A DNA stretch of 64,000 nucleotides from a phage: the sequence record PZ445134.1; one strand, given 5' to 3'. Position numbers and translations under genes: made by a program. Position 1 is the first letter of the stretch, and every line of letters starts with the position of its first letter. Positions 37,819-38,117 of the stretch are shown one piece after another. Below the pieces are notes generated by a model. It had not been told where the DNA came from. It did no database searches and was given only the letters and a program-made list of their open reading frames with translations.

Positions 37819-37990
37819 TTAACCATTCAATTGCCTGGTCGACGTTATCAAATATACTGCCGTCCAACCATTCTTCATGTTCATAGTCCAGCACATCAAT
37901 ACCGAACCGTCCATTTACTAAAGGCCATACTACAAACAAATATTCTTTATGCTGTTCGATGGCCTCAATCACTTCATATAATCGTTTCAT
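37799..37990 (-). CDS. hypothetical protein
   Basis: 63-aa ORF whose start lies in the first copy of the 77-bp duplication. Confidence 0.5.
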   Translation of the reverse strand: MKRLYEVIEAIEQHKEYLFVVWPLVNGRFGIDVLDYEHEEWLDGSIFDNVDQAIEWLNENYVR

Positions 37991-38117
37991 TAAAAATCAC
38001 CATGGTTAACTTGCCAACATTCAACACCGATACGACGCCACTCAATCACTTCATATAATCGTTTCATTAAAAATCACCATGGTTAACTTGCCAACATTCA
38101 ACACCGATACGACGCCA
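37964..38117. repeat. perfect 77-bp direct tandem duplication (2 copies) spanning the pseT stop and the start of the downstream gene
   Basis: 37964-38040 and 38041-38117 are identical base for base. Confidence 0.9.

Follow-up and report, generated by a model that had tools for sequence, protein, structure and literature searches.

Does the perfect 77-bp tandem duplication at the 3' end of pseT in phage record PZ445134.1 reflect a very recent event in the phage, or did it arise when the genome was assembled? Both readings were offered by an earlier, sequence-only reading of a 64,000-nucleotide stretch of this record (the window), which held that two adjacent blocks of 77 nt (copies 1 and 2 in Table 1) are identical base for base. 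Base-by-base comparison confirms the identity over 77 of 77 nt, and Tandem Repeats Finder describes the same array (period, 77; copies, 2.0; matches, 100%; score, 310). A repeat search of the 64 kb returned no long exact direct repeat other than this pair. A chance origin is ruled out, as it would call for ∼6.4e4 x 4^-77. Identity at a period of 77 extends over positions 37964 to 38118, i.e., 155 nt or 2x77+1, and the homology flanking the unit therefore amounts to just 1 bp.

Table 1. Features of the window discussed in the text (positions are those of the 64,000-nt stretch)
Feature	Position	Strand	Basis or remark
Terminase small subunit gene (terS)	1..495	+	Its ATG occupies window positions 1 to 3
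Class I DAHP synthase gene, 330 aa	35903-36895	-	PF00793, 1.7e-74; phrog_5045, 1.3e-181
Cd.4-like gene, 63 aa, function unassigned	37799..37990	-	phrog_2360, 1.9e-33; RB69 position annotated cd.4
Copy 1 of the 77-bp unit	37964..38040	.	Identical to 38041-38117
Chimeric ORF, 25 codons (9 Cd.4-like N-terminal, 16 pseT C-terminal)	37990..38067	-	ORF listing
Junction between the copies	38040..38041	.	Junction-spanning 50-mer and 32-mer unmatched; not present at 12 related loci
Copy 2 of the 77-bp unit	38041..38117	.	Identical to 37964-38040
pseT, polynucleotide 5'-kinase/3'-phosphatase, 299 aa	38067..38966	-	PF25109, PF13671, phrog_505

The repeat lies where two genes meet. PseT shows the two-domain architecture of its family, an N-terminal P-loop kinase followed by a C-terminal HAD phosphatase in a protein of ∼300 aa: residues 5 to 143 match PF13671 (AAA_33; 9.9e-24) and residues 158 to 299 match PF25109 (HAD_PNKP; 2.4e-57), both above the gathering score, and the phrog_505 match (3.3e-124) is full length. 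Its counterparts carry the annotations pseT (RB69) and polynucleotide kinase (PHB12). The 63-aa gene that follows can be assigned, by its family match and its position, as a homologue of RB69/T4 Cd.4, and PF26883 (Phage_T4_Y13G) is assigned in 10 contigs that encode an identical Cd.4-like protein. The stop codon of pseT overlaps the start of the Cd.4-like gene as TAATG.

The minus-strand ORF listing agrees with what had been said of the content of the unit, namely, that it holds the last 16 codons and the stop of pseT together with the first 9 codons of the 63-aa gene. Both genes are intact, as was also claimed; copy 2 supplies the final 16 codons and stop of pseT, and copy 1 the initial 9 codons of the Cd.4-like gene. 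The listing likewise contains the 25-codon chimeric ORF that the duplication was said to create. This ORF is joined to its neighbors at both ends by TAATG overlaps, its residues 7 to 25 match the C-terminus of the PNKP phosphatase domain, and it owes its existence solely to the repeat.

Searches of the surroundings gave no indication that the unit serves a purpose of its own. Promoter-like sites in positions 37500 to 38500 were at chance level (3 found versus 3.5 expected), no terminator was found in the same interval, RNA covering the two copies has a fold no better than those of shuffled sequences (z = −0.17), and neither Rfam families nor tRNAs were detected anywhere in the 64-kb window. 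At the level of sequence features there is no sign of anything functional in the 77-bp unit, which counts in favor of an artefact.

Between dCMP deaminase and the pseT cluster sits a gene for a class I DAHP synthase, an auxiliary gene of the aromatic-amino-acid pathway. It is also found in PHB12, a20, AV112, and Logan and ENA contigs and is missing at the corresponding place in RB69.

Judged by its matches, the window comes from an RB69-like, T4-type phage of the genus Mosigvirus (Straboviridae). It is 96 to 99% identical to Escherichia phages PHB12, AV112, NRG-P0074, and RB69; the identities differ by segment, and the best matches form a mosaic. Expressed as the product of coverage and identity, similarity is 82.8% to phage a20 and 82.9 to 84.4% to four other Mosigvirus genomes. 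Equating the window with phage 6phi8 (PZ311406; assembled with SPAdes 3.15.5), for which NRG-P0074 and a20 are named as the nearest relatives (PMC13600099), is thus not supported, the window being no nearer to a20 than to those genomes. A phage collection of August 2025 contained no record identical to the window.

Where the record begins is of particular relevance. The record opens with the terS start codon, the A of which coincides with base 1 of at least eight other records: window positions 1 to 3000 align to positions 1 to 3000 of AV112, AV113, AV118, and a20, and positions 1 to 25000 align from base 1 of AV109 and AV114 to AV116. Assemblers do not end contigs on start codons. Because base 1 is the terS ATG and is common to other records, the record was evidently rotated after assembly. 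Sibling Mosigvirus records are deposited as circular, and headful packaging and circular permutation are established features of T4-type phages (PMC9391042).

Two further kinds of repetition were seen elsewhere in the window. A family of 26-nt motifs has three members (positions 11317 to 11342, 33709 to 33734, and 49159 to 49184) with the core GGTCTATAGTAACACA and 77 to 85% identity; it could be due to chance or could represent a shared regulatory or endonuclease site. Diverged direct repeats at positions 53960 to 54229 (71 to 76% identity, units of ∼42 to 69 nt, and spacing of 108 to 120 nt) lie in the gene for the proximal subunit of the long tail fibre, a position deduced from the annotation of a20 and AV112, and are probably the repeated structural modules of gp34.

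Comparison with related phage genomes, one of the checks that the sequence-only reading had proposed, returned a single copy of the unit in ∼150 relatives. These full-length relatives span 1,224 nt where the query around the repeat spans 1,301 nt, exactly 77 fewer. Once one copy is deleted from the window, gapless alignments are obtained both to PHB12 (1224 of 1224 columns) and to RB69. The duplication is therefore private to this record, the relatives having a single copy and no other change in length. A junction-centred 50-mer, which seeds a megablast match only where the junction exists, had no match among 50,697 phage records; an equivalent query, run as a positive control, recovered the junction that phage a20 itself carries (see below). 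The junction 32-mer CACCGATACGACGCCACTCAATCACTTCATAT had no exact match in IMG/VR, JGI metagenome contigs, or GTDB genomes, and the join of copy 1 to copy 2 was absent from the 12 related loci in which it was sought.

Ten independent contigs (six from Logan, one from ENA, and three from NCBI) encode the identical Cd.4-like protein, and in all of them pseT directly abuts cd.4. Their identity to the window does not exceed 98.2%, and they hence belong to other phages. The exact PseT protein was absent from an index of 153 billion genes, and there is therefore no independent assembly of the isolate in that index.

The length of the unit suggests how such a repeat might arise. The default k values of SPAdes are 21, 33, 55, and 77, with 99 and 127 added for longer reads, and 77 is the largest default value at read lengths of ∼150 nt. 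When a genome is circularly permuted, a de Bruijn-graph assembler would close it as a "circular" contig in which the first k bases equal the last k, and a final k of 77, as used by SPAdes for reads of this length, would leave an end overlap of 77 nt. If such a contig were rotated to the terS ATG before one copy of the overlap had been trimmed, its former ends would be joined head to tail at 38040|38041, and a perfect tandem repeat whose unit has exactly k bases would appear at an arbitrary internal place, in this case the pseT/cd.4 gene junction. Copies 1 and 2 would then be the two terminal 77-nt k-mers of the original contig, and the junction between them would be the point at which the contig ends met on rotation. 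The true genome would have one copy of the unit and, as in all relatives, a single TAATG joining pseT and cd.4, without the 25-codon ORF.

A 77-bp SPAdes end overlap on a contig of a circularly permuted phage has been published (PMC9409062), equivalents of 127 bp have been described as a k-mer artefact to be removed (PMC7372960 and PMC12007190), and the Phage Annotation Guide notes that assembly redundancies may land inside a contig (PMC8785237). The published overlaps resemble the window repeat in that their copies are identical, their length equals the final k, the genome is circularly permuted, and relatives have no counterpart. They differ in lying at contig ends, where they are trimmed, whereas the copies here stand head to tail inside the record; the internal position is what rotation before trimming is expected to produce.

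The characteristics of an untrimmed overlap are found together at this locus, i.e., 100% identity between copies, a unit equal to an assembler k, a genome of a type that assembles as a circle, a rotated record, and a repeat private to that record. A flanking homology of 1 bp is also as expected of an artefact, because the break is arbitrary. We therefore regard an untrimmed, SPAdes-type end overlap with k = 77, made internal by rotation, as highly probable, a strong case that nonetheless stops short of proof. We infer both the assembler used and read support for a single copy. Of the two explanations originally offered, an assembly artefact is thus strongly favored, with a mechanism identified, while replication slippage and illegitimate recombination gained no support.

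A parallel case is provided by Escherichia phage a20 (OQ067374.1), which belongs to the same genus and whose record starts at the same terS ATG. It contains one perfect tandem duplication, with a unit of 127 bp, at positions 132373 to 132626 of the record; flanking homology is nil (0 bp), and the duplication overlaps two small hypothetical CDSs (a20_216 and a20_217) adjoining rI. Its junction occurs in a20 only, and at this place 155 relatives, among them NRG-P0074 with 99.8% identity, are shorter by exactly 127 bp. The unit length is the other default maximum k of SPAdes. The two cases differ in unit length (127 versus 77 bp) and in locus; they agree in genus, the terS start, a single perfect duplication whose unit equals a default maximum k, microhomology of 0 to 1 bp, restriction to one record, and relatives that are shorter by one unit. 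The probability that both lengths (77 and 127) would coincide with a SPAdes default k by chance is ∼4e-4, if lengths are uniform over 15 to 300 bp. The a20 repeat is very probably an untrimmed SPAdes overlap of the same kind, with k = 127, the record having been rotated to terS.

The pseT homologue of a20 is annotated as 777 nt rather than 900 nt (positions 37950 to 38726 of the a20 segment) and is separated from the next upstream gene by a gap of 120 nt. The shorter annotation could stem from a frameshift, from the choice of another start codon, or from an error in sequencing.

Six complete Mosigvirus genomes (a20, AV112, EP02SG, LNA2, TH58, and OZ035759) were searched for perfect tandem duplications with a period of ≥15. 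None was found in EP02SG, LNA2, TH58, or OZ035759, and none of the six genomes had a terminal overlap in which the first k bases equal the last k. The proposition that there is no other perfect tandem duplication in Mosigvirus genomes needs qualification in view of AV112 (OR352942.1), where perfect repeats of 15, 18, and 54 bp occur. None of these lengths is an assembler k.

The longest of the AV112 repeats, which is shared with AV113, is instructive as a contrast. Located at positions 9349 to 9463 of the searched AV112 segment, it duplicates 18 codons in frame within the major capsid protein gene (GATDAAKLDAEVKKQMEA) and is flanked by 7 bp of microhomology (CTGGTGC). The duplication is found only in AV112 and AV113, and 156 other records are single copy. 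SPAdes k values are always odd, and 54, being even, cannot be one of them. This repeat shares with that of the window a perfect tandem arrangement in a Mosigvirus record starting at terS, but its reading frame, its microhomology, and its presence in two records all lack a counterpart in the 77-bp repeat. It is probably a real, microhomology-mediated event in an essential structural gene.

Two cautions follow from AV112 for the interpretation of the 77-bp repeat. Perfect identity is not in itself proof of an artefact, given the probably real perfect duplication of AV112/AV113. In addition, AV112 has the same terS start and no duplication of length k, which counts against the artefact reading and means that rotation does not always leave such a trace.

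One other record may also reflect problems of assembly. That of Escherichia phage BEU50 (OM632671.1) has a length of 193,190 bp, ∼24 kb above that of other Mosigvirus genomes (167 to 171 kb), and matched a single-copy query at two places, pointing to an extensive terminal redundancy that was left untrimmed or to some other fault of the assembly.

Could the duplication nevertheless have occurred in the phage? It would then be a very recent, real tandem duplication in the isolate, generated by illegitimate or microhomology-mediated recombination or by replication slippage and leaving the genes intact, an explanation that we consider very unlikely. Efficient recombination of the T4 type should lose a 77-bp direct repeat, which counts against it, as do the exact agreement of the unit with a default SPAdes k, the recurrence of the same pattern with another SPAdes k in the sibling record a20, and the fact that no other isolate or contig has the 77-bp duplication. 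Further, the repeat comprises fragments of genes and amplifies none in full, which leaves no evident selective reason. The explanation draws some credibility from the ready formation of tandem duplications by T4-type phages (PMC9391042 and studies cited there), from the probably real perfect 54-bp duplication of the siblings AV112/AV113, and from the viability of the arrangement, which preserves both genes and both TAATG overlaps. Real T4 duplications, however, have boundaries at microhomologies of 2 to 10 bp (typically 6 to 10) and involve sequence that is open to selection (PMC9391042), whereas the boundary homology at this locus is 1 bp and the unit contains neither a complete gene nor an in-frame coding segment open to selection, its sole product being the 25-codon chimera. 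The amplifications described for T4 (dmd-tifA, rII, and genes 16 to 18; PMC9391042 and references therein) are comparable in being head-to-tail repeats in a T4-type genome. They comprise whole genes under selection, range from hundreds of base pairs to kilobases, often exceed two copies, and have been confirmed by PCR and read depth, in contrast to a repeat of gene fragments with 1 bp of microhomology that is known here from sequence alone. If the event were real, a translationally coupled ORF of 25 codons, combining the Cd.4 N-terminus with the PseT C-terminus, would have been inserted between pseT and cd.4, which appears equally improbable; if true, it would offer a snapshot of the birth of a small chimeric ORF at overlapping gene junctions in T4-type phages.

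An artefact need not have come from SPAdes with a k of 77. An unrelated error of circularization or contig joining, whether manual or by software, or of polishing, e.g., overlapping contigs pasted together untrimmed, would leave the same trace, since any head-to-tail join of overlapping sequence yields a perfect tandem repeat, and the record has clearly been edited after assembly. An overlap of exactly 77 nt would in that case be a coincidence, overlaps between contigs that were assembled separately, or those from long-read circularization, are usually arbitrary in size and mostly larger, and the published cases tie 77 bp specifically to SPAdes. We consider such an origin very unlikely, slightly more so than a real duplication, and retain the untrimmed k = 77 overlap as the explanation of the repeat.

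The 77-bp tandem repeat is thus present in the sequence, but on the features described above it most probably does not represent real biology. Its biological import is very small, and what it offers is a lesson in quality control. The record probably exceeds the true genome by 77 bp, and automated annotation may place a spurious small ORF between pseT and cd.4. The signature of the error is a perfect tandem repeat with a unit equal to an assembler k (55, 77, 99, or 127), without microhomology, and confined to a single record that has been rotated to begin at a conventional place. This signature flags errors in other public phage genomes, the 127-bp repeat of a20 being a second example, and scans for recent duplications in phages should filter such cases out. 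The in-frame 54-bp duplication in the capsid gene of AV112/AV113 provides, by comparison, a model of what a credible real event looks like in these phages.
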